Under the pieces are notes generated by a model. The model made no database searches. It was not told where the DNA came from and saw only the letters and a list, made by a program, of their open reading frames with translations. Positions 33,634 through 58,446 of a DNA stretch of 64,000 nucleotides are shown piece by piece. Made by a program: the position numbers and the translations under genes. The stretch's first letter is position 1. Each line of letters begins with the position of its first letter. Source of the stretch: Eledone cirrhosa (taxonomy: Eukaryota); NCBI GenBank assembly GCA_964016885.1, contig OZ024740.1:248000001-248064000 (forward strand), written 5' to 3'.

Positions 33634-33852
33634 CTTTAGAATTGTTTCCAAAATGTAGGTGACGTTTAGTAATAAGTAACAAACTACACACGACAATCAC
33701 AATGTTCAAGATGGCTGCTATACGTTTAGGGTATACAAACATATAAAAACCGACAACATCATAGAATACCATGTTGCCATGACGATCGGCCCCTGGATTG
33801 GCCAGTTTTGGGGTAGATGCAATTGTTTCCAACAGATTTTTCAAGTTTTCTC
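33634..33852 (-). CDS. ERMP1: ERMP1-like exon: GENLKNLLETIASTPKLANPGADRHGNMVFYDVVGFYMFVYPKRIAAILN...
   Basis: tcaaag/gtgaga, 219 nt, phase 1-1. RHGNMVFYDVVG resembles ERMP1 RHGNMVFFDVLG. Confidence 0.95.
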
Positions 33853-33959
33853 CTTTGAAAATAACAACAAAGATGTCACTGTAGATTTCAGTTTATATAC
33901 ACATACACACACACATATATATATATATAGTGAAAGATTGAAGAATAACATGGTCAGCT

Positions 33960-34930
33960 GTACAACAAGGGGTTTTATTTCAAGTATTAACAATTGTTTC
34001 ATTGATCAAGTGAGTCTAAAGGCCGCTAATCACTCGAAGTTGCGTCACTCGAAGTGTATGTATAAAGATGTGAGGGTGGAGATAATACTAACATGAAAAG
34101 TAACATTAGATACATACATACATACGTGGTGGTCAAATCTCAGAGGGTAGAGAATAAAAGGTAGTAACAAATGACAGATAAAGACAAAAAATAATAAATT
34201 AAAAATTAAGTAAGAGATACGAGGATGAGATATAAGGGGTAGGGCTAAGGACAGGGAAGGAGGATTTTGATATATGTATGTGTGTGTGGTAAATGTTTAG
34301 CGTGCTGATTGTCTTATCTTAATGGGGTTGATGTGGCTTTAGGGAGAGAGAGTGAAAGAAAGGTTAGGAGATTTATGATGTTGATCTAGTGACCAGTCGG
34401 TCAATTGACAGCTAATAACAGTGGGGTGGTACGTATTCAGTACATTAAAATCCGGGTGGTTTAGCTCGAATTTTGAGTTTGCTGGGTCGAATCATGTTGG
34501 CTTGAAATTTGTGAACTTGGTAGCTGTTTTGTGCCTACAGAAAATTGATCTTTCTATTTTAAAGTTAAGCAGCATCTTATCATACTTTAAAATATAGAAT
34601 AGCTCCATATTGCAAAGTCCGCAGTGGGACATTCCATTGTTGTAGGCCCTTGCTCCCGATAATTTCAACCAGCTAATCCTATATTCCTGGTTTGTGTCCT
34701 TAAGCTGCCAGATTTTATTGGCCAGCGTTGTTGAGTTCTCTAGTCTATGGTTCTTCATAGAGTGTCTGTGAATGTACCATCTTTTTTTTAATTCCCCAGT
34801 CGTGGAACCTATGTAGTGCCATGTTAAGTTGCCCAAATTTATAGTACACAGGTACACCATACTTGAACTAACTATTGAAACATCTTGTTGAGTCAAACAA
34901 AGCCATACGTTAAAACTATCCACAATACAG
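33960..34930 (-). mobile_element. Penelope-like element 3' fragment (GIY-YIG endonuclease plus 3' region)
   Basis: ORF 34492-34923: VYLC..YIGSTTGELKKRWY.H, STTLA..IW, CGLCNME, LLN..E...CRH. Confidence 0.88.
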
Positions 34931-34980
34931 AGTACTCACAACCTATAACTGGATTACCTATAACGATAACTTGTTATCCC

Positions 34981-35802: not shown

Positions 35803-36902
35803 GGTGTTCGGAAAGTAACTGCGCTTTTGTCACCACTATGAAATATGAATCAACCAATCACATCAGAGCCAAAGTTAAATGGGTGGAAACTGTTTAAAAT
35901 AGTTCAGTATATCATCTTTTCTATCTGGCAGTGTGTCATTCATAGTTATTTCAGTAATTAACCCCATGGAGGATAAGAATTTTATGAAACAACATATTCA
36001 CCATTGCTTACTGTATGAGTTTCGAAAAAACAGTTCCACTACAGAAGCAATAAAAAACATTTGTGAAGTGTATCCAGATGCAGTAAAAGCTTGAACATGT
36101 TTGCTATGGTTTAAAAGATTTAAAGATGGCAATTGTACCATATCCGACAAGCCTCGCTCCAGAAAACGACACACTATGAATGACAACCTTTTGAATGAGA
36201 CTATTGTATCAGCTCTACATCATATGTGTCATGTTCAACTATCCACAAACATCTCAAGCAAATTGGGAAAACATGCAAAGAGGGAATTTGGGTTCTACAT
36301 GAGCTTACGCTTGAGAACCGAACACGTTCCAATAGCTGCAGCAGTCTTCTAATCAGGAATAACCACCTACAGCGCATTGTTACAGGTGATGAAAAATGGG
36401 TTTTATATCAGAACAGAAAATGAAAAACAATGGTTATCATGTAATGAAAGACCAGTACCAACACCAAAACCAGAACTCCATCTACAAAAATCCTTGCTCT
36501 GTGTTTGGTGGAACATGAAAGGTATCATCCATTACGAGCTACAGGAACATGGAAGAACCATCAATGCAGATGTCTATTGCCAACAACTTAATCGTGTAAA
36601 TGAAAAATTACATTTACAGTGACCTGCTCTGGTAAACAGAAAAAGTGTTATTCTCCAACATAATGATGCATGTCCACACTGCAAAACAAACCCAAGAAAT
36701 GATAAGATCATTAGGATGGGAAGTTTTTCCACATCCTTCAGAAACAGAGAGGAAGATGAAAACAGCTTTTCAGACTTTTTTTCAGGAAAAGAAATAGGTT
36801 TCTTTAAACGTGGGATCAAAAAGTTGCCTTCCTGTTGAGCTGTAGTTGTTGAAAACAATGGTGATTACATTCTTGATTAAAATTACCTTCAGAACACCCT
36901 AA
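35799..36902 (+). mobile_element. Mariner DNA transposon, defective
   Basis: TIRs TTAGGGTGTTC(G/T)GAA(A/G)GTAA next to a TA run; WVLHEL, IVTGDEKWVLY, LLCVWWNMKGIIHYEL. Confidence 0.92.
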
Positions 36903-36939
36903 CATATGCATATTTATGTATTTGTTCTGCAAGATTCTT

Positions 36940-38105
36940 GATGTGAAATCGTGTGTTGAAACCAATATCGTTATATTTGGGGATGGTCATGCTGCCAATA
37001 CTGCCAATAGAAAGAAACCATATAATTTTCACTTTCGCTTTATATTTATTCTTTGTTATTCATTTGTTTATCAAAAGTTCTTTCAACACATACTACACTT
37101 TATCCACCACATGCAGTTCTCTGGTTATATCCAAAGCGACAGGATCAGGGTGTACAAAGAAGCCATGGCTAAATTCAAAACCATTATGGAGAATGATACG
37201 AATGGTATTTGCCCACTATACAGGAGCAAATCATGGAATAGCAGCTCAAGGTATGACAGACAGTCAAAAATACCAGAGTGTCATGTTGTTGATGCTACTC
37301 CCAGAGGCAAACTAGTGTATCATTTTAGAAGAACCTTAGAAAAAATGAATCTTAGGATTAAAGTAGTAGAAAAGCCAGGAGCTACCATAAAATCACATTT
37401 CAGTAGGATATATCCCTTTCGGAAAAACGCCCAGTATTGATAGAAACTGTATAGTCTGTAAGATGAGCCCACAGATAAACTTTAAAACTAGAAATGTAGT
37501 CGATAGGAATGATGCAGAAATAAGATGACATACATAGGAGAGAGGTTAAAGGAACACGGGTGAGAACTTAAGGGGAAAAGCTCATCAGTATTATACCAAC
37601 ATGGCAAACTAGAACACAAGGGCTCAATAGACAACAGCAATAAAGATCCTATCCACACAGAACTGATGCAACACTTAGACAAATTACGGAGGCCACACAC
37701 ATAATAGAAGATAGTCCTAGACTGAACAGAAAACACAATTGGAATAGTAACTACCTGCAACTTAATGACTGGAGACAGAATAAAAACACAAACAGCAAAC
37801 CAACACACACATAAAACATATGTAGACATGAGAAACACATACACACACAGAGACAAAGATGCTAACACATGCACAGACACAAAACACAAAAAACACACCA
37901 CAAAACGAACAAAAAAAAGATGTAGTAGAAGTTTAAGACCAGAAAAAGAGGAGGCACAAAACAGATTATCATTGAGGAGGTCACAGAATGTGTGATGAAA
38001 GAACTTTGATAAAGAAATGAATAACAAACAATAAAGATACCGTGAAAGTGAAAATTATATGGTGCATGTGATTCATTCTATTGGCAATATTGGCAACATA
38101 CCCAA
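36940..38105 (+). mobile_element. Penelope-like element 3' fragment flanked by inverted ~120-bp repeats
   Basis: PLYRSKSW, DATPRGKL, IKVVEKPG..IK....PF, then YIGE. 36978-37095 is the reverse complement of ~37985-38103. Confidence 0.75.
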
Positions 38106-46301: not shown

Positions 46302-46358
46302 AATATGCAAATCACTGTATATTCCAGAAAATATCATATATTTTCACTAGCTCTGACA

Positions 46359-46441
46359 GTTGGTAGTTAAACAGTATACAGTACTGATGAAGGATAATAA
46401 CCCAGAAACATTAGTGTTTGCCGTTCTGTTTATATGCCAAC
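46359..46441 (+). ncRNA. Type I hammerhead ribozyme-like fold, copy 1
   Basis: CUGAUGA (46384-46390), short stem II, GAAAC (46405-46409), stem III closing at GUU (46416-46418); stem I pairs GUA/UGC, UAAACAG/CUGUUUA, GUUGGUA/UGCCAAC. Confidence 0.7.
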
Positions 46442-46806
46442 ACAATAGCAAGACTGATGGGGTCATTCTACTGACATGGCTTAAGAGGCTGTTTGCATAA
46501 TTGCAAAATGAATCGAATATCTATATACTACTAAAACTCTATGATTGCTTGCTTGCTTGTCTGTAATGTAATACAGCCAAAAGGGCGCATAATGGGAAAA
46601 TACTTTGAAAAGAGGTTGACCCTGAAATGGGAATACAAATTGAATAAAAGAGGTTTCACATAAATTGGAGCACGGCTTCCCGAGATATGGGGATTTTCCA
46701 GGTAACTTCATAAACACAGAGAGAAAAAGATAGAGAGAAAGAGATAGTGGTTGTGAGAGAGTAGATTGAATGAGAAATAGAGCTGGTGGTGTTGTTGTGT
46801 GTATAT

Positions 46807-49177
46807 TAGGCATATTCCTAAAGTACACTTTTGTTAAAAAAATAAATGAGCATGCCATTTTCAGATGAACTTTTACTAGAAAATACTTGTGAGCATGTTA
46901 AAAAATATTAGAATTTTAAAAAACTCTTGCACAAGGTAGATTCTTTAACATTGATTAACTAATATAGAATTGCATATACAATATACGTGTGTATGTAATA
47001 AAAATATAGTGTGCAATTTAACAATTTATAAAATATAGTATTCTTCTTCAAATTGTTTAATGGATCAACTTTATTGCTTGTTCATCACTTATTTGTCAGT
47101 TTAATCTGTTCATAAAATTCATAAATAGAATAAATTAAAATTTGCGAGGTATATTTATTAATAGATTTTAATATTTATAATTATATTATATTAATATTAT
47201 AAATTTCTGATGTATAAAAATCCAGTTGCTAAAGAGGAAAGTAAAAAGATTTGGGCACAAAATATTTGTCATTTTGAGAAGAGAAAGAAATCTAGGAAAA
47301 CGAAAATTCAAAGTTCATTAATCGAATTATGCAAGCTACCTACTGAGCAACAGATCGTTGATAGATATATCACTCTTGCTGCTGAAGAGAAAAATACCAA
47401 AAATAGAATTAAAATAATTACTGGAGAATGTGAAAGTTTATGGGAAAAGTTCAGCTTTTCAACTATCAACAAACTTTCACTACCTCGAAAAATTGAAAAA
47501 ATAATTTTAAAAAAGGAAAAAGAAGTGAAAAGACCTGGCTCTACGAATTTCAATAATCTGTTTGACATTACAAAAAGATATGGGATATGGTTAGCAGCCG
47601 AAGATTTGTCATTTTATGAAAAGCAAGTTGAGAGTTGTGGAAAGGCTGGGTATACTACAATGAAAATAGACAGTGAAAAGAAATCCATCCTTCTAAGAGA
47701 ATTAAAAACAAAAAATAAGAACTAGATCATGATAAGCCATCCTGCTTATACATTCATCTGGACTCAAATGAAAGTTACAGTGACACCGATACAAATACCA
47801 GCGATTACAAACCTTCAGCTTCACCTTCATCAGAAAAAAACGAAAAAGAGAAAACACAGCTCATGCTGTTAACCTAGTAAGAAATACTAAATTACCTAGT
47901 AAAAAAGCAGCAGCAGTTTGCAACGAATTTAAAAGTGGTTGTATTAAGGTGAGCACCCCGAGTCAGTCGGCAGTGCACAAAGCAGTTATCAGAGGTGAGA
48001 AACTCATGGAAATGTGGAAAAATGAACTCAAAAGGGAAAAATGGAGCCTTCATTTTGATGGAAAACGAATGAGAGACGTAGAATATCAGGTTGTAGTGAT
48101 AAAAAATGATGAGTTACGCCTGAGGCCGATGGCATTAACCAATGGAAAGGCTCTTACTATATTTAATGGATTGAAAGAAGTTATTGACAAATATGAACTG
48201 TGGGAATCTATCGTGATGATAGTCTCCGACACAACTAGTGTCAATACCGGCAAAAAGGCAGGAGTTATTGCCATGCTCAACAGTGAGTTCGCGCATCGCG
48301 GTTACAGCAAGCCATTATATGTTGGATGCCAGCACCACATTTTAGACAGTGCATTGAAAGTTTATTTTGATCAACTATATAGTAGCAAAACAACTTCGCC
48401 ATATATCAATTATTACTTTGTTGAGGCCATTTTAAAGAACTATGACGAACTGAAGCAGAACTTTTCAAATGGAACGATGGAAATTAATGAAACCCTGCCA
48501 CGCTGGAGAAGTGACATGGATTGCCTTCAGCATCTCATGATAGCCGTGCAACATTTCTTTGAAAACGGTGCGTTTCCTAAAATAAATTTTAAGAAATTAC
48601 CTAATTTGCACAATGCTCGTTGGAATAGCTGAGCAATTTATTTGTTGCTTGTGTTTATTTTGATGCCTGATGAACGAGCGAAGCTGCGCGCTGGTGCAAA
48701 ATACATCTGCGGAATGTGGGGGAAAATGTGGTTCGCAAGTCAACTGTATAGAGCTGACAGCAAGCAGAAACTCATTGACCAACTAATTAAGGCCAAGTGT
48801 GAAAAGGCTGCAAACACCGTCAGAAAATTTTGGTCTAATGAAGAATCTCCAATTGTGATGCAACGCTCGAACATTTGCGCTGAGCGAGCTGTAAAAGTTG
48901 TGCAGGACCTTTTGTCATTTTGTAAAAGTAGTAGAACCTTAGAGATTAAATTTGGCTTAACTAAAAATTAAAATAAATTTTTTATTGTCATAATTTATTG
49001 TTTTAGGTATTTATTTTATGGGACTGGTTAATTACCAAAAAATTAAAAATATAATTTAGAATGTGCAAGAATTTTTTTCAAAATTTACAAAAAAACTACT
49101 GTAATTCTTTCTTTATGACAAAAACCTCATTAGAAAATAGCATGCTCATATGGGGCTGTAAAAAAGTCATATGCCTA
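46807..49177 (+). mobile_element. hAT-superfamily DNA transposon (hATm-like), full length, transposase with frameshifts and a stop
   Basis: TIR TAGGCATAT, imperfect subterminal inverted repeats (ATGAGCATGC.ATTTTC), exact 8-bp TSD GTGTATAT; LHFDGK, SDTTSVNTG, CQHHILD, HNARW, N.CAERAVK. Confidence 0.9.
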
Positions 49178-49213
49178 GTGTATATATATATGTGAGTGTG
49201 TGTATGTATATAT

Positions 49214-52200
49214 ATCATCATCATCATCATCATCTTCGTTTAATGTCCATTTTCCACGCTAGCATGGGTTAGACGGGAGTTGTCCCACTTGAGGCAAGGC
49301 TGGTCGGGTGACCGTGTCTCGCTCATATAGGACGATCTGGCAGGTTTTCTACGGCTGGATACCCTTCCTAACACCAACCACATTTACAGCGTGGAACTGG
49401 GAACTTTTTACCGTGTTACCTACACGGCCACATTACAGCGTGGACTGTGTGTTTTTTGTCGTGACACCTACACGATTTCGATCTCATTATCTCGTGCTGT
49501 TGGTGGGAGTGGGAGAATAGGGTAAGGGTAGTGAATTGGGGTGTATATTTGGTTAAGAGGTGCCTACTGACTGTAGGTTTCGCTTTGTACATAGGCAAGG
49601 CGGGTCTTCTGTATTACTGCGTAGCGCCAAAGATCTCGGTCCAGAGACATTGTCTTAGAGAGATGAGTGTAAGGTTGGAATTTATCAGATCATCCCAGGT
49701 TTTTCTGGGTCTACCTACTCCGTAACTACCATCAATTTTGATCGCCCTGCACTTTTTTATGCAGCTGTCGTCTTTCATGCGCATCATGTGACCATACCAA
49801 CGTAGTCTTCTCTCAAGTAAACAGCATCTGATCCCTCTTATTCCTAATTTCTCACTTAGTTCATTTATGCTTTGCCATTCACGTATATTACTATTACACA
49901 TCCAGAGGAGCATGCATGCTTCGTTCCTCTCCAGTCTGCGTAGATCCTCTGCACATAATTCCCATGTCTCACTGCCATGTAGCATTGATGTTCGTATACA
50001 GGTATCATACAATCTGCCTTTCATTTTTAGAGAAACCTTTTGTGGCCAACAGCGGTATAAGCTCTCTGAACTTTTTCCATCCCATTCTGACTCTGTCTAC
50101 TGTACTTTCAGAGCACCCTCCACCACTGCTGATTTTGTCACCCAGGTAACGGAAAGTGTCTACTATTTCTATAGAACCATCTGGGCAATAGAAGGAGCTA
50201 GTATCCTGTGGACACTTGCTACTTATTGCACCTGAGCATTGGCCACATATAAAGTCTACGTTCTTAGATAGTTTACCTGTGATCCCACTACATCTTTTAT
50301 GTACCCATACTTTGCATTTGGGACATAAAATGGAATTTCTGCCCACTCCTTTCCTACACACTGAGCATGGCCATATCTCTTTCTACAAACTAGAACTTTA
50401 GTCTTAGACAAGTTAACTTTAAGGCCTTTTGATTCTAGGCCATGCTTCCATGTTTCGAATTTCTTCTCTAGTTCAACCATTGATTCAGCTATGAGCGTTA
50501 GATCATCTGCGTATAGGAGTTCCCATGGGCAGCCGGTCTTGAACTCCTCTGTTATAGCCTGAAGGGCAATAATAAATAAGAGGGGGCTAAGGACAGAGCC
50601 TTGATGAACGCCAACTTTTACACTAAATTCTTCACAATATTCATTGTTAATTCTAACCTTACTGACTGTTTCATTATACATAGCTTGTATAGCTCTCACA
50701 AGCCATTCATCTACACCTAGTTTTCTAAGAGCCCACTAGATAATGGAGCGGGGGACTCTGTCAAAAGCTTTCTCCAGGTCTACAAAAGCTAAGTAGAGGG
50801 GTTTACTTTTAGCTAGGTACTTCTCTTGTAGTTATCGTACAAGGAAAAGAGCGTCTGTGGTACTTTTACCTGACACAAACCCAAACTGCATTTCGTCTAG
50901 ATCAATTCGCTCTCTGATTAGTTGCGCTATAACTCTTTTTGTGACCTTCATGACCTGGTCAACTAACTTAATGCCTCTATAGTTTCCCCTATCTAGAGCA
51001 TCCCCTTTACCCTTGTAGCAGTTAATGATGATGCTGCTGCTACGCCAGTCTTTCGGTATGACCCCATTCTGTATTACTTGGTTAATTATACTGGTGACCA
51101 TAGTGTGTCCCACCATACCAGATGCCCTCAACATCTCAGCAACTATCTCCGAAGGCCCAACTGCCTTGCTTGTCTTCATATCTTTGATTGCCTAACTTAT
51201 TATACTACCTTTAACTTGCACCGCTGGTCCTTCTATTGGATCGATTTGGAGCAGACTATCTTTTTCCCATTTATTCTCCTCATTTAATAGTCTCTCGTAG
51301 TGACACTTCCAGGCTATCTTCTTATCAGTATCAGTGAGCGCAAGTACACCATTATCATTATGGACACACTTCTCCCCCGACAATATCACGGTTTTCCTTG
51401 ACACATTGTCTAGCAATCCTGAACACCTCACGTTTTTGGTCCTCACATTGTAGAACATGCTTGAACTTTCTATCCTCTGCTACCCTTTTTGCAAGCTAGC
51501 TTCTCTCCTGGCCACTTGATAGTGCTCTCTACTTCCCCCATCCTGCCATACTTTCCAAGCCTGCTTTTTGGCCTTGATTGTCTCTTCCACCTTACTGTTA
51601 CACCACCAAGTTACTCTCCTCCTGCTAATAGGTCTGCTCCAGCCACAGATTTCATCTGTTGCTTTCAGCAGTTCACTTTCAAGAATTGCCACTGTTCCTC
51701 TATATCGCACGTCTCTAATTGCTCTTCCTTATTGTCAAAGGCATCAAGTAATAAGCTTTTAAATTTGTCACTGGCTATGAGGTCCTTCAACTTCCATATT
51801 CTTCTCTTCAAGGTAGGCCTCCTCTGTCGTCGAGTACGTCTATTCTTGACTATGCGGTCACTAACTACTAGGCTATGTTGGGAGGCGCATTCTTCACGGG
51901 GGAGGGATTTAGTGTTTACAACAGACATTTTGTCCCGTCTTCTAGTAAGGATATAATCTATCTGGCTGGCGTGTTCCCCTGATCTATAGGTGATCAAGTG
52001 GTTTTCACATTTTTTGAAGTTTGTGTTACAGATAGTTAGGCTATTTGCGTCACAGAATTCCAGGATTCTGAAGCCCTCCTCATTTCTATTTCCAACCCCA
52101 TAGCCTCCATGGATTCCATCATAGCCATCACTATGTTGTCCAATGTGACCGTTTAGATCGCCAGCAATAATTAAGTAGTCACTGTCGGTTATTTGGGAGG

Positions 52201-52390
52201 TTATTTCTATGGATTAGCATCTCATAGAACCTGTCCTTTATAACATCAGGTAGACCAGAATGGGGTGCATAAGCATATATTATTGTCACAGTAGTTCTAT
52301 TGAGAACTAGTCTTAATTCAATTATTCTGTCATTCACTCTATTTACGTCAATTACCTTATCTACCCATTTTTCAGCTAACATAATTCCTA
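49214..52390 (-). mobile_element. RTE LINE (family 1), 5'-truncated in the APE, relatively young
   Basis: APE (YAYAPHSG, SQIDYIL), RT (HQGSVLSPLLF, LLYADDL), Cys/His finger, 3' UTR, (GAT)n tail. Confidence 0.93.
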
Positions 52391-52406
52391 TATATATATA
52401 TACATA

Positions 52407-53296
52407 CAGGGTGCAGACGATATTTGTTCGCAATTTTCAACTGCTAATTTTATGCAAATTTTTTTTACTTCCATTGTCACTCTTGTCTTCATAAAAACAG
52501 TGACTATATTTCCATTATTTATTTTCAGAATAATTGATTATGAATAATTTTGAACCACCAAATTTGTGGAAGAGACACGGAGTTCTTCTTGGAATCCGCG
52601 CCAGGAGGACAAATAAGACCAGAAGATCAACTCCCAGAAAAACAGGTGGCTCGCCGTCTCATCCAAAGACGTGCCTAGAGTCATGCAGACAGTTTCCAGC
52701 GACAACATTGGTCTTAGGTGTCGTCAGCAGTCAAGGTGACGTCATGCCACCTCACTTCTTCCCTGAGGGCCTCAAGCTGACCACCGATGGCTACATCTGC
52801 GTTCTGAACGAGGTAGTAAAGCCCTGGATTGACCAGGTAGCTGCAGGTAGGCCGTACGTATAGCAGCAAGACTCAGCGCCCTGCCATACCAGCCGAAAGA
52901 CCCAAGCTTGGCTGTCAGAGAACTTCGTCGACCACACTCCACCTGACATCTGGCCTCCCAGCTCGCCTGACTGCAACCCCCTCGACTTCTTTGTGTGGGG
53001 CGCAGTGGAACGAGACACCACCAAATCTAGCTGCAATACGAAAGACGATCTGAAGGCCAGGATCACAAGTGCCTTTAGGGACCTAAGTCGAGGGACAGTG
53101 AAGAAGGCCTGTAGCCGGTTCCGAGGCCGCCTTGAGGCCGTCATCAAAGCCAATGGCGGGTTTATCGAGTGAGATCGAAAGAACAAGACATGAAGACAAA
53201 CTGACCCAAGTTTGATAAATAAATCTTAAAAAATAAAACTACTGTGTTATTTTTTCCTAGACAGCAATCTTGCGAACAAATATTGTCCGCACCCTG
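52407..53296 (+). mobile_element. Tc1/mariner maT (DD37D) transposon, internally deleted
   Basis: TIRs CAGGGTGC(A/G)GAC(G/A)ATATTTGTTCGCAA flanked by TA; QQDSAPCH...WPPSSPDCNPLD gives 37 aa between the last two Asp. Confidence 0.9.
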
Positions 53297-53333
<37 letters not shown>

Positions 53334-53385
53334 ATATATGTGTGTGTGTGTCTATGACCAGTGTATATAGATCACAGACACCCAC

Positions 53386-53418
<33 letters not shown>

Positions 53419-53592
53419 TTTATATATATACATGCACACACGTATATATATATATATGGGCCTTCCAGTTTCATTTCACATTATATACATGTCTGTGTAT
53501 ATTTTAATTATTTAAAAATTATTTTTAAGTGAACATGATTTTTTAAATATATTTTGAAGCGAACGTGACCCAACGAGTCACGGGTGGTCTAG

Positions 53593-54070
53593 TTATTAAA
53601 AAAACTCAGATTTACATTTCTTGTATTCAACCATGTAGAGCAATAAAACTATTTGTTAGTTACTTGACTATGGCAAAGCCAGCCATTAATCGCTTGTATA
53701 CATAAAACTGACTGGCCTATCTGCTAATATGCAGATCTGACTGATCAGGCAGTCTGTTAATATGCAAATCAGGCCGATCAGCCATTGTATATTCCAGAAA
53801 ATATCATATATTTTCACTAGCTCTGACAGTAGGCAGGTAAAGAGTATACAATACTTATGAAGGGTAAAAACCCAGAAACATTAGTGTCTGCAGTTCTGTT
53901 TATATGCCAACATAAGAGTAAGAATGATGGAGTCATTCTACTGACATGACTTAAGAGGCTGTTTGCATAATTGCAAATCAATCAAATATTATTATTAATA
54001 TTCGAAAAACTCAGATTTACATTTCTTGTATTCAGCCAGGTAAAGCAATAAAACTATTTGTTAGTTATTC
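53593..54070 (+). repeat. ~405-bp tandem repeat: one full unit and a partial third; partial first unit at 46302-46519
   Basis: AAAACTCAGATTTACATTTCTTGTATTCA at 53601 and 54006; 53785-53980 matches 46315-46510. Confidence 0.88.
53829..53911 (+). ncRNA. Type I hammerhead ribozyme-like fold, copy 2 (core variant CUUAUGA, GUC triplet)
   Basis: CUUAUGA-A-GGGU-AAAA-ACCC-A-GAAAC-AUUAGU-GUC. Confidence 0.6.
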
Positions 54071-54314: not shown

Positions 54315-55586
54315 CTGAAAGAAAATAACAAAAGACATACACAATAACATATATTTATTTTCAAATGAACTGCAAAGGAGAGCAAATAGTTAAACAAATA
54401 CAACTACAACACTTGAATTCCATACTGCTCATAGTTAATGATTTCTTATATAAAAAGAAGGAGGATGTAAAGTTATGACAATTATGCCACAGTTTTCCCA
54501 AAGAACTCACCACTTCTCATTGCACTTCTAATCAAGCTGCCAGCCATTAAATAATCATTTGACCAGTTAAAAGTAGCAGCTAAATTGCCCTCATATCATA
54601 TATACCTCACCATTTTCTAAAGTAATGGAATGACACATTGGATAATTGTGGTTCTAGATAAACTATGTCTATAAAATGAGATGGTCATAGCTGGAATGGT
54701 TTTGATCATAGGTTTATTTGATCAGGGCTAACGTGGAACTGAACAACTCATAACAAAAATCTCTTTTAGTAGCTAGAAATATTCCTTTATATTTACTCAT
54801 CTGCATTCACTCCAGATTGATATCGCTGTGTGTTTACCTAGTAGGTCCTAAATATACAACTCATTATTTTTAAGAGATTTGAAAAGTTTCTTTATTTTCT
54901 TTTTTAAATAAGAATCCACTCTTAACTTCTATTGTGAATAGATTTTTTTTTAATATGTTCCTATATGACACTTAATTGCCTCTATTTTTTACTTAGCTCT
55001 TTACCTTGGAGGATTAAATAGCTTAGTATAACACGTCTTTAAAATAATTAAACATTTATTTATATACTACGCACACACCCTTCTTTTAAACTTGTTCTCA
55101 ATAAGTATCTTATTTACTATGTCTATTATTTAAATGGATGAGACATAGTTAGGTGGTTAAGAAGTTTGCCTCATAACCACAGTTCTGGGCTCTATTTTAT
55201 GTCATCTCCAATCCTTAGAAAAGGTAAGACAAAGTTCTTGTTTCCTCAAAATTAGTTTAAGTCTGCCTTGAATATATAGGCTCAATACGGCTAGAGCGTG
55301 TCCCAGTTTCATGTGGCATTAAACAACTTTGAACATGACATCTGTCTGTCACAAGGTTAATTCCCAATTTCTGCTGTTTGTGCTGGTACTCTGGCTGTGT
55401 GGATTACAAGGGATTTATTTGGCAAGTGAACTAAATAAATCAATGCAACAACTGATTATTACATTCAAGGAAGAAAAAGAAATTAACAGAATAATAGATT
55501 TCATGTATATTTTCTTAGACATGTATAGGACAGAATATGTTGGTAGTTGAAAATACATTTCTAGTTAATAGAGAGAATAGAAATAT

Positions 55587-55981
55587 GTCTATGCTGTTAT
55601 GCACTCTATGTTGTTATGTACTCTATGTTGTTATGCACTCTATGCTGTTATGCACTCTATGTTGTTATGCACTCTATGTTGTTATGCACTCTATGTTGTT
55701 ATGTACTCTATGTTGTTATGCACTCTATGTTGTTATGCACTCTATGTTGTTATGTACTCTATGTTGTTATGTACTCTATGTTGTTATGTACTCTATGTTG
55801 CTATGTACTCTATGTTGTTATGTACTCTATGTTGTTATGCACTCTATGTTGTTATGTACTCTATGTTGTTATGCACTCTATGTTGTTATGTACTCTATGT
55901 TGTTATGTACTCTATGTTGTTATGTACTCTATGTTGTTATGTACTCTATGTTATGCACTCTATGTTGTTATGCATTCTATG
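55587..55981 (+). repeat. 17-bp minisatellite (TCTATGTTGTTATG[C/T]AC)n, about 23 copies
   Basis: Directly visible; produces spurious repeat ORFs in three frames. Confidence 0.95.
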
Positions 55982-58446
55982 TCTGGCCGTTTGCTTGAGT
56001 GTGTAAGTAGTAGCACATATACATGTGTACATTCAGTGTGTTGAAGCAAAGGGTTTACATCAAGAACAACATTATGACAGCACAGGACGAAAACATAGAA
56101 TGTGTGTATTAGTGTGTGGGTCTTGCGTGTAAACAAATTATAACAATGCTAAAAAATAAAGGAAGAAAACAATAAAATTAAAACAAAGGAGGTTCCTCAA
56201 TAGGAAGGAGACGTTCGAGGGTCACTCATGGAAACCCTGCCCCCTTAAAACCAAGGGTGTCCTGATCTCTAGGGTAAGTGCCCTGTCCCAGTTGTTCTCT
56301 TCCAATCTATATGTTTACACTTAGAGCAGGCCCATTCATTCAGTCCATATTTCCCTCTTTCACCCATCTTTCTACAAATTGCTTTGAAGGCAGCACTTCA
56401 CCTCCTGCTCTGATTTTCGTCTTCAAGTGAAACCTGAAGAAGTTAATCAGGGCTTCGCCAAAGAAGAAAGAGCTCATCTTCAACCCTTTCAAGCATGTCT
56501 ACCATACAGCCTCTTTTGCCATGGCCACAAGACAGATCAAAACAGCCTACCCTTCTTGACTAAAGGAAGGTGGCAGGACAATCTTCACAATGGACTTGGT
56601 TGATAACCAGTTTTCTCCGACATGTGGCAGCAGATGTTCAACATAAGTCAGCAATGCTTGGACAGAGGACGATTGTGTGAGGGACAGTTTCGTCGCACTG
56701 TGCGCATCTTGGACAAGTCCAGCTGACAGCACTTCCATGCCTGTAGAGTTTAGCTTGAACTGGCAAATCTCCTCGGTCGCAAGGCCAGGCCAGGGATTTT
56801 GGGGAATTATTCATGGGCCCTGGACTGAAAGTCATCCTGAAAAGAGTGGCTAGTTGATTTTCGTCAATATCTAGAGTTTCCCCAAGAAAATCAATGCTGT
56901 TATCCACCACTAACCTTCTATAGAATGCCAAGATAGAATTTCCACCAATCATATTGCCTGATTGGCAGAGAGCTGTAAGCACCTGAAGACATTCCAGTTT
57001 CCAAGCGCTCTCCCTCAGTCGCCGCTTGACCCATGACTACAGCTCCATTATGGATACGAGCTGGGGGCACATGCATCTGGTGAACGGCAACCACTCCTGT
57101 TCAACGTTAAGGAAAAGATGGCGATGTCATAGCCTCAGTGCATAGCTGCGCGTCATCAGCCACAGCAGTCCCTGTGCTGCATGCAGCGATTGTTGACAGC
57201 AGGAACAGCTTTCTCTCAGCCCATTTCTGGGTGAGATTGGTCAGTCTGTTTGTTACCTTGTCCCAGTTTCTGTCCATCTGAAAATCAGGACCAAACCAAA
57301 CCCCAAGCAATTTAACCAGTCCATCTGTCTCTGTCCAGCATCCAACAACACTGATGGGTGGGATGGACCTGCCCCTCCATCTGCCGAGTTACAGGCCCAC
57401 CAACTTTTCCTGATTTTGGAGAGGAAGAACAGTATTTCCATCCTTCAGGAGGTTTTGGGGGTGGGATTCAAAAGCCGAAATGTCGACTCTGGGAATTTTG
57501 TTTTTAAATGTGTGTATGTGTTTTGCGTTATTTATATTATTTGTATGTTTCTGGGTATTGCTATTTTTTTTTCTTGTTTTACGAAATCTTTTTGTGTGAT
57601 TGTGGTGTTGTGGTGTAAGTAATTTAAAAGCTTTATATTGTTCGAGTCAATTGTTGTGTAGTGTGTGATGTTTGTATCTTTTTGTTGTTGCAGGGGTGTG
57701 TTAGGTTTTGCTTGGGATGTTGTTAGTCTGTGTGTTGACTGTTGTGGTGTTAATGGTAGTGGAGTTGGCAGTGTAGCTACTTGTGGTGGTGGATATGTAG
57801 ATTTTAATATATTTTTGTTTCTTTCTCCCACTTTATTTTTAGGGCTAAAATGAGGAGTTTTTTTTTTCTTTTTGGGGCAGGATGTTTACCATTCCTTGAC
57901 CTCGTAAGAATTTAAGTCTGACTGTGTGATGTCGGGCAGTGGCATGTCCTCGATGGGTGTTGGTGTTGGTTCTGATAGTGTTGGTCTTGGTGGTACTGGT
58001 GTTGCTGTTTTATTTCATTTTTTTGCTGTTGCTTTTCTTGATTTTGGGTTTTGGTGGTAATTGTTGTTGGTGATGTTTTTGGTGTTGGTAGGAGGGGAGA
58101 GGTTTTTTTACCCTTCCTTTTAGTGAAGTGCAGAAAGCTCTTAAGTGGTTTGTGAAAGACAGATATGACATCTTGCTTTTCTCCCTTCTACACAAACTGG
58201 TAAGATTATACTACCTAGAAGATGTATTTATTCAGGGATGGAGTCTATATTCCTTTCTTCTTGTATTTTAAACTCCCATAATTCTGTCAGACCCTCGAAA
58301 ACAATCTTCTACTTGTATTTAAACTCTGATTACTGTTATATGCTCGTTTAATTATGGCCGAATTTCTAGGATTATATTATAAAATAATCTTCTCGCTACC
58401 GCTCCCAGATCCCCACCTCACTTACCACCATTATTAGTTGGTCCAA

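Follow-up and report, generated by a model that had tools for sequence, protein, structure and literature searches.

A decayed hammerhead-bearing repeat in the octopus Eledone cirrhosa, probably spread by Penelope-like elements

The window locus

We analysed a 64,000-nucleotide (nt) stretch of the Eledone cirrhosa genome (contig OZ024740.1, positions 248,000,001-248,064,000, forward strand; hereafter the window, to which all positions refer), which carries parts of a non-coding, retrozyme-like repeat with a type I hammerhead ribozyme fold. The repeat lies inside ERMP1, antisense to the gene as the original prediction had it, because an ERMP1 exon at 33635..33853 (90% to Octopus ERMP1, 76% to Argonauta) and peptidase M28 (PF04389) exons 3 kb and 44 kb beyond the window end are all on the minus strand. 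A motif scan of the minus strand at the element locus found no hammerhead core.

Two segments (46313-46520 and 53783-53989) align over 208 nt at 90% identity, bearing out the two homologous stretches of about 200 nt, each with a hammerhead core, that had been predicted. The first copy (46302..46519, plus strand) is a 5'-truncated part-unit whose 3' side is cut by a Helitron-like insert, and it is 91% identical to positions 220-429 of the family's majority unit described below. Its type I fold (46359..46441, plus strand) has an intact core, with CUGAUGA at 46384-46390, GAAA at 46405-46408 (GAAAC-AUUAGU from 46405) and a single mismatch in each of stems I and II; cleavage is predicted 3' of 46418, after the triplet GUU (46416-46418). 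The second copy (53593..53998, plus strand) is one full 405-nt unit without an open reading frame (ORF) and is 84% identical to the majority unit counting the gap left by an absent 33-nt internal repeat, which accounts for the difference between 405 and 438 nt. Its fold (53829..53911, plus strand) comprises CUUAUGA at 53854, GAAAC-AUUAGU at 53875 and the triplet GUC (53886-53888), with the predicted cleavage site 3' of 53888. G5 is a required base of the hammerhead core, and because the G5U change strikes it, this fold is predicted to be inactive.

The cores are spaced by 7,470 nt, which falls to the predicted 397 nt after removal of the insert (46520-53592, 7,073 bp). A 77-nt repeat at 53594 and 53999 likewise confirms the 405-nt spacing of a third unit, but what starts there is a 71-nt 3' stub (53999..54069, plus strand) rather than a full unit, and it stops at unit position 69, the 'long' 3' end of the family. 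The locus is therefore a broken relic, a decayed copy of about 1.7 units from a dispersed family, with no complete hammerhead in two consecutive units. Because the Helitron separates the cores and the second carries G5U, the locus is predicted to be unable to release unit-length RNA and to be inert; it is an intronic relic without sign of host function. The ERMP1 region including the element is repeated in inverted orientation about 1 Mb away (C1, about 249.00-249.07 Mb; L001 and L122) at 99.4-99.5% identity, representing either a recent duplication or an unmerged haplotype.

A dispersed family of 438-nt units

A query with the unit returned 4,231 first-look candidates in the genome, 40 of them scored, and the genome search for copy number that the original prediction had proposed placed the repeat at many loci. 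An exact 38-nt core matched 124 places in the genome and none in the control, while a shorter exact core pattern matched 1,397 places, covering the window's own family (family A) and a sister family, versus 4 in the reversed control. Sorted by loop sequence, 30 short-core loci comprised 22 of family A, 7 of family B and 1 more that was B-like. Our family A sample consists of 90 of the 124 exact-core places and is thus selected for an intact core, and a majority unit was derived from 13 long copies. This unit measures 438 nt with 38% GC, and its longest ATG-initiated ORF (32/35 amino acids) agrees with the predicted lack of coding capacity. Folded as a circle, it reached -170 kcal/mol (z -11.6, 60 shuffles) with 70% of bases paired, and the minus strand was similar; the window's second copy, folded as a linear unit, had a z of -3.2.

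Aligned copies were 116-701 nt long, and 18 of 90 were longer than one unit, with the longest reaching about 2.4 units (L152). Median identity to the majority unit was 92% (100 of 107 segments, those long enough). Because nearest neighbours were 93% identical, with a maximum of 96.4% leaving out duplicates (copies about 7% diverged), a young burst is not apparent in this intact-core-selected sample. Terminal direct repeats around a unique centre were absent from the loci examined, flanks were mostly (TA)n, and copies with upstream reach led directly into the 3' part of a preceding unit.

The tandem, retrozyme-like array of the original prediction holds as to the family but not as to the array, since copies are mostly dispersed sub-monomers. 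Head-to-tail pairs of cores with gaps of 385-440 nt numbered only 8 genome-wide, including one of family B and one in a 90-nt minisatellite, and a long tandem array was rejected on this count. Two consecutive complete hammerheads were found at few loci (L005, L030, L152-L154, L156 and L158, plus L255 and L263 of a third family, C), mostly with a point change in one motif. The minisatellite (L157:1479-2094) holds six family A-derived hammerhead cores, each without most of the 3' strand of stem I.

Conservation of the hammerhead fold

We examined 142 distinct family A motifs together with a set of 35 copies collected without requiring the long core pattern. In this less selected set, CUGAUGA was present in 24 copies, GUC in 26 and the A.A under stem II in all 35. 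The same non-canonical A.A, already recognized in the original prediction, occurred in 142 of 142 motifs, where it is mostly fixed by the search pattern. Stem I was 84-98% paired per position across these motifs, and its -4/+4 pair alternated between G-C and U-A (28 G-C, 83 U-A and 10 mixed among the 121 with those letters). Among 18 aligned copies, 93.8% of the cells were paired versus 30-44% with the partner slid, although kinship of the copies inflates such counts.

Families B (L155, L167, L172, L180, L181 and L186) and C (L249-L268) have units of ~434-440 nt, an internal TA/TG-rich tract and hammerhead variants of their own; for family C, with a unit of about 438 nt, there were 1,254 candidates. 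The six-pair stem I reads ACUGUA/UGCAGU in family A, ACAGUC/GAUUGU in B and ACGAUG/CAUCGU in C, while all three share loop 1 (UAU opposite U) and loop 2 (UAAUNA), and helix III is palindromic or nearly so. Cleavage triplets across the families are GUC, GUU and GUA, and the base of stem II is A.A in A and B and U.U in C. Because three families keep the fold with fully compensatory changes in stem I, the hammerhead fold was selected, and this cross-family comparison is stronger evidence than the within-family pairing counts. Other, unrelated hammerhead-like motifs (L006:2780, L029, L030:462, L136, L143, L210, L218, L226 and L233), several with U.U or other stem II mismatches, are probably the ends of other Penelope-like families.

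Insertion signature and candidate helper

The 3' ends of 108 family A loci, with duplicates dropped, clustered at two sites, unit positions 20-33 (48 loci, short end) and 58-78 (25 loci, long end). TA runs followed 39 of the 48 short ends and 17 of the 25 long ends. In contrast to these fixed 3' ends, 5' ends were scattered, with copies truncated from that side, and a head-to-head inverted arm was present at 26 of the 108 loci. All 10 classifiable inverted pairs combined a short with a long end (7 + 3, none alike; p about 3e-4 if independent), which places the 42-nt tail on one end only. Of 15 family C loci that have an inverted piece on the 5' side, 12 showed the short/long combination, the other 3 being unclassifiable (hand-read, best hits only). 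Insertions of Penelope-like elements (PLEs) are described as having 5' truncation, partial tandems, a 5' copy in inverted orientation, a tail of 30-40 bp confined to one end and microsatellite targets, (TA)n in the case of Hydra (Craig 2021, PMC8557442). Given that 5' truncation, fixed 3' ends at TA microsatellites, inverted arms and a one-sided tail match this description, the unit carries the Penelope-like insertion signature.

A candidate for the kind of enzyme involved lies in the same gene, where positions 33930..34980 (minus strand) hold the TA-flanked 3' fragment of a Hydra-type PLE with its GIY-YIG end. Its CxCX5C linker and CxxC and CxH motifs are as given for Hydra, with TA at its end, and its placement in the Hydra clade rests on these motifs; its family has a minimal hammerhead of its own with U.U under stem II. 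The suggestion that nearby Penelope-like fragments might be the helper thus stands as to their presence, but the fragment has no sequence in common with the unit and marks only a candidate kind of helper. Hydra-type GIY-YIG ends are plentiful in the genome, and matches to the unit near 70 loci retrieved with three GIY-YIG queries were separate neighbouring insertions. GIY-YIG matches in open frames of 776 and 861 amino acids (C2:63447806 and C3:151604703) are possibly intact Penelope-like ORFs. A second Hydra-type family (L210-L228) has a CUUGAUAAG/GAGAAG...CGAAAC motif at its 3' end that resembles a variant-core hammerhead, and both a short and a longer 3' end occur.

We considered that the unit might be the pseudo-long terminal repeat of an ORF-bearing PLE and its copies the 5'-truncated debris of that element, which would account for the PLE type of the insertion signature and for the truncation, most PLE copies being 5'-truncated (PMC8557442). 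However, an ORF for reverse transcriptase (RT) or GIY-YIG was found in or joined to the unit in none of 90 loci (60 with 4 kb upstream), leading us to reject the idea that all copies are attached to Penelope ORFs. Moreover, copies reaching upstream enter the 3' part of a previous unit, sequence shared just upstream of the 5' ends of the 90 loci could be ascribed to inverted arms, a single duplicate pair and an unrelated repeat, and PLE protein matches lie on the other strand, downstream or non-adjacent. This explanation is largely refuted and we consider it very improbable.

Slightly more improbable still is that a satellite-like repeat multiplied at the DNA level, by unequal exchange or by being carried on Helitrons, and that its hammerhead is vestigial or a chance look-alike. 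A Helitron is indeed present in the window copy, the motif went unscored by Rfam and local tandem amplification of 90 nt occurred at one locus (L157). Yet the unit was the target of the Helitron and is absent from the relatives of that Helitron, the dispersed copies show polarity and have fixed 3' ends, and compensatory changes are seen across families.

The template for insertion

Taken together, we read the window locus as a decayed copy of a 438-nt non-coding hammerhead family that was likely copied into TA microsatellites by a Penelope-like enzyme, probably of Hydra type, and likely from circular RNA formed by predicted self-cleavage and re-ligation (probability roughly 0.6). Transcripts of the rare two-unit copies would undergo cleavage at GUC, probably after dimerizing via the near-palindromic helix III (predicted self-duplex between two copies, -8.8 kcal/mol), and the cleaved monomer would be ligated into a circle. 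A Penelope GIY-YIG/RT protein would then nick (TA)n and prime at two A/U-rich sites within the unit, 140 and 180 nt beyond the point of cleavage, with the RT crossing the restored junction, sometimes for more than one lap; the window copy would have been split by the Helitron afterwards.

With the two 3' ends situated 140 and 180 nt beyond the cleavage site, the bond at that site was probably intact in the template. A doubly cleaved linear monomer would be incompatible with such ends and was rejected, leaving a re-ligated circle or an uncut linear multimer. We favour the circle, which we think probable, on four grounds: the unit is closed and its self-pairing very stable, most long copies continue through the upstream site, the ribozyme was kept under selection in three families, and circles have been demonstrated for relatives.

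In the linear version, the family and the Penelope helper are the same, but the template is a transcript longer than one unit that comes from a tandem master, the hammerhead does no more than trim the 5' end or cleave on rare occasions, and a circle is unneeded. Consistent with this, the cleavage site is uncut in every classifiable insertion, the predicted core trap and the A.A would slow cleavage, the longest copy spans more than two units, and several copies (L051, L098 and L119) begin shortly after the upstream cleavage site, although long copies are too few to call a pile-up there. Conversely, long copies that cross the upstream site outnumber those that stop at it, self-pairing of the closed unit in circular form is very stable, helix I is kept by compensatory change in three families, and circles have been demonstrated for coral, mussel and axolotl retrozymes (PMC7229834). 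On balance, we regard a linear template as rather unlikely.

Several observations nevertheless weigh against copying from a self-cleaved circle by a Penelope-like enzyme. In family A, the predicted energy minimum is a fold in which the core base-pairs with the helix III strand, at a median of 7.4 kcal/mol below the active fold in 119 copies (the energy model takes neither core contacts nor contacts between loops into account). The A.A closing stem II points the same way. Detection with Rfam, which the original prediction had proposed, failed, with Rfam 15 giving no hammerhead match in the window at E<=1 and only microsatellite-driven miRNA matches and one chance snoRNA match. Within-family covariation amounts to a few inherited changes rather than to many events. 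The scarcity of two-core pairs makes templates rare, longer-than-unit copies are equally compatible with an uncleaved linear multimer, and cleavage was reported for only 1 of 9 predicted Xenopus dimers (Li 2026, bioRxiv 10.64898/2026.07.22.740005). Regarding insertion, 3' ends lay outside the two clusters in 35 of 108 loci, several of which had evidently been cut by later insertions. Of the 26 inverted pairs, 16 were unclassed (most close to the short/long pattern), and in two of these, L093 and L176, both arms stop before or at the short site. Lastly, no autonomous element with the unit's ribozyme or 3' end was found in the 70 GIY-YIG loci, drawn from about 50,000 candidates per query.

A broader picture can be offered only tentatively, in which octopod genomes would harbour at least three ribozyme circles of ~435 nt that form a superfamily. 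Their scars (longer-than-unit copies, one-sided tails and priming at two sites within the unit beyond a restored cleavage junction) would record Penelope RT copying circular RNA, and a built-in core-blocking helix and the A.A stem II would leave the family A ribozyme switched on only in dimers. If this were true, younger sister families may still produce circular RNA.

Relation to known retrozymes and Penelope-like elements

Non-LTR (long terminal repeat) retrozymes have already been described, including in a mollusc, with PLEs proposed as helpers (PMC7229834; bioRxiv 10.64898/2026.07.22.740005), and animal units measure 350-390 bp in mussel, 330/350 bp in axolotl and 220-240 bp in coral (Cervera & de la Pena 2020, PMC7229834). 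Like them, the octopus family has a head-to-tail unit of a few hundred nt that is low in GC and without an ORF, a type I hammerhead of canonical size with three helices, a short palindromic helix III and a stable, highly self-paired predicted circle, and at 438 nt and 38% GC the unit falls within their range of size and composition (150-450 bp, GC under 50%, non-coding). The U.U at the base of helix II in family C recurs in axolotl HHR_Amex2, which cleaves weakly alone and well as a dimer (PMC7229834). Unlike known non-LTR retrozymes, the octopus family consists mostly of dispersed sub-monomers with very few two-core copies and, in families A and B, has an A.A mismatch beneath helix II. In addition, its family A core is predicted to be trapped, whereas most metazoan retrozyme circles are described as leaving the core free (PMC7229834). 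The octopus family is known from genome sequence, and no sequence-matched PLE was found for it among the 70 GIY-YIG loci, whereas in Xenopus 24 of 57 families had a match among known elements, PLEs in nearly every case (Li, Clavereau & Pollet 2026).

With Hydra-clade PLEs, which include Hydra-1_Obim (PMC8557442), the family shares (TA)n targets, 5' truncation, partial tandems, an inverted 5' arm and a one-end tail, the latter about 42 nt in family A and about 60 nt in family C versus 30-40 bp in PLEs (PMC8557442). It also shares with PLE hammerheads the position near the 3' end and an extra base after A9, which is common in the latter (Cervera & de la Pena 2014, PMC4209133). Unlike PLEs, it has no RT or GIY-YIG ORF and the repeat is the whole element, and unlike their minimal hammerheads it has the full loop 1/loop 2 layout.

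In literature searches on retrozymes and on cephalopod or non-autonomous cases we found no octopod retrozyme, although supplements of PMC7229834 and Li 2026 could still list cephalopod examples; for the giant squid genome, 235 Rfam hammerhead-1 matches were counted, with no description accompanying the count (PMC6962438). We thus classify the family, from its sequence features, as a putative and previously undescribed octopod member of the known non-LTR retrozymes. Its value lies in the family-wide insertion signature and the ribozyme variants, and less in the window copy. Earlier grounds for PLE mobilization of animal retrozymes were co-occurrence plus sequence likeness to pseudo-LTRs in Xenopus, and the full PLE insertion signature in dozens of ORF-less, PLE-unmatched copies provides independent support. 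Furthermore, fixed priming sites make the question of circular versus linear template countable, and three natural hammerhead variants are supplied, with A.A or U.U under stem II and GUC, GUU or GUA as triplet.

The Helitron-like insert and other neighbouring features

The insert that splits the window copy (46520..53592, plus strand) begins with TC and ends in a hairpin followed by CTAG (CTRR), at an A|T site and with no target site duplication, as expected of a Helitron. A genome search with its 3' end gave 2,120 first-look candidates; of 18 relatives, 17 shared its 5' end within 1.5 kb upstream, with most ends about 600 bp apart. Because its relatives are about 600 bp long, the insert is non-autonomous, and it reached 7,073 bp through nested insertions.

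The first of these (46802..49182, plus strand) is a DNA transposon bounded by 14-bp terminal inverted repeats, whose transposase-like ORF (47195-48971) is broken and gave no match in a Pfam search; its nearest Atlas clusters are unnamed animal proteins, with FAM200/ZBED5-like clusters only at 0.8. The second (49214..52210, minus strand) is a broken long interspersed nuclear element with endonuclease and RT (Exo_endo_phos_2, E 5e-5; RVT_1, E 4e-16), which we take to be RTE-like from its (GAT)n tail. The third (52405..53298, plus strand) is a Tc1/mariner-type remnant with terminal inverted repeats in TA (inverted arms 52389-52433/53270-53314) and a DDE_3 match (E 0.0035) short of the cut-off. 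Elsewhere in the window, a repeat-derived ORF fragment occupies 36877-37440 in an ERMP1 intron, and a minisatellite with a 17-bp period and about 30 copies spans 55503-56020.

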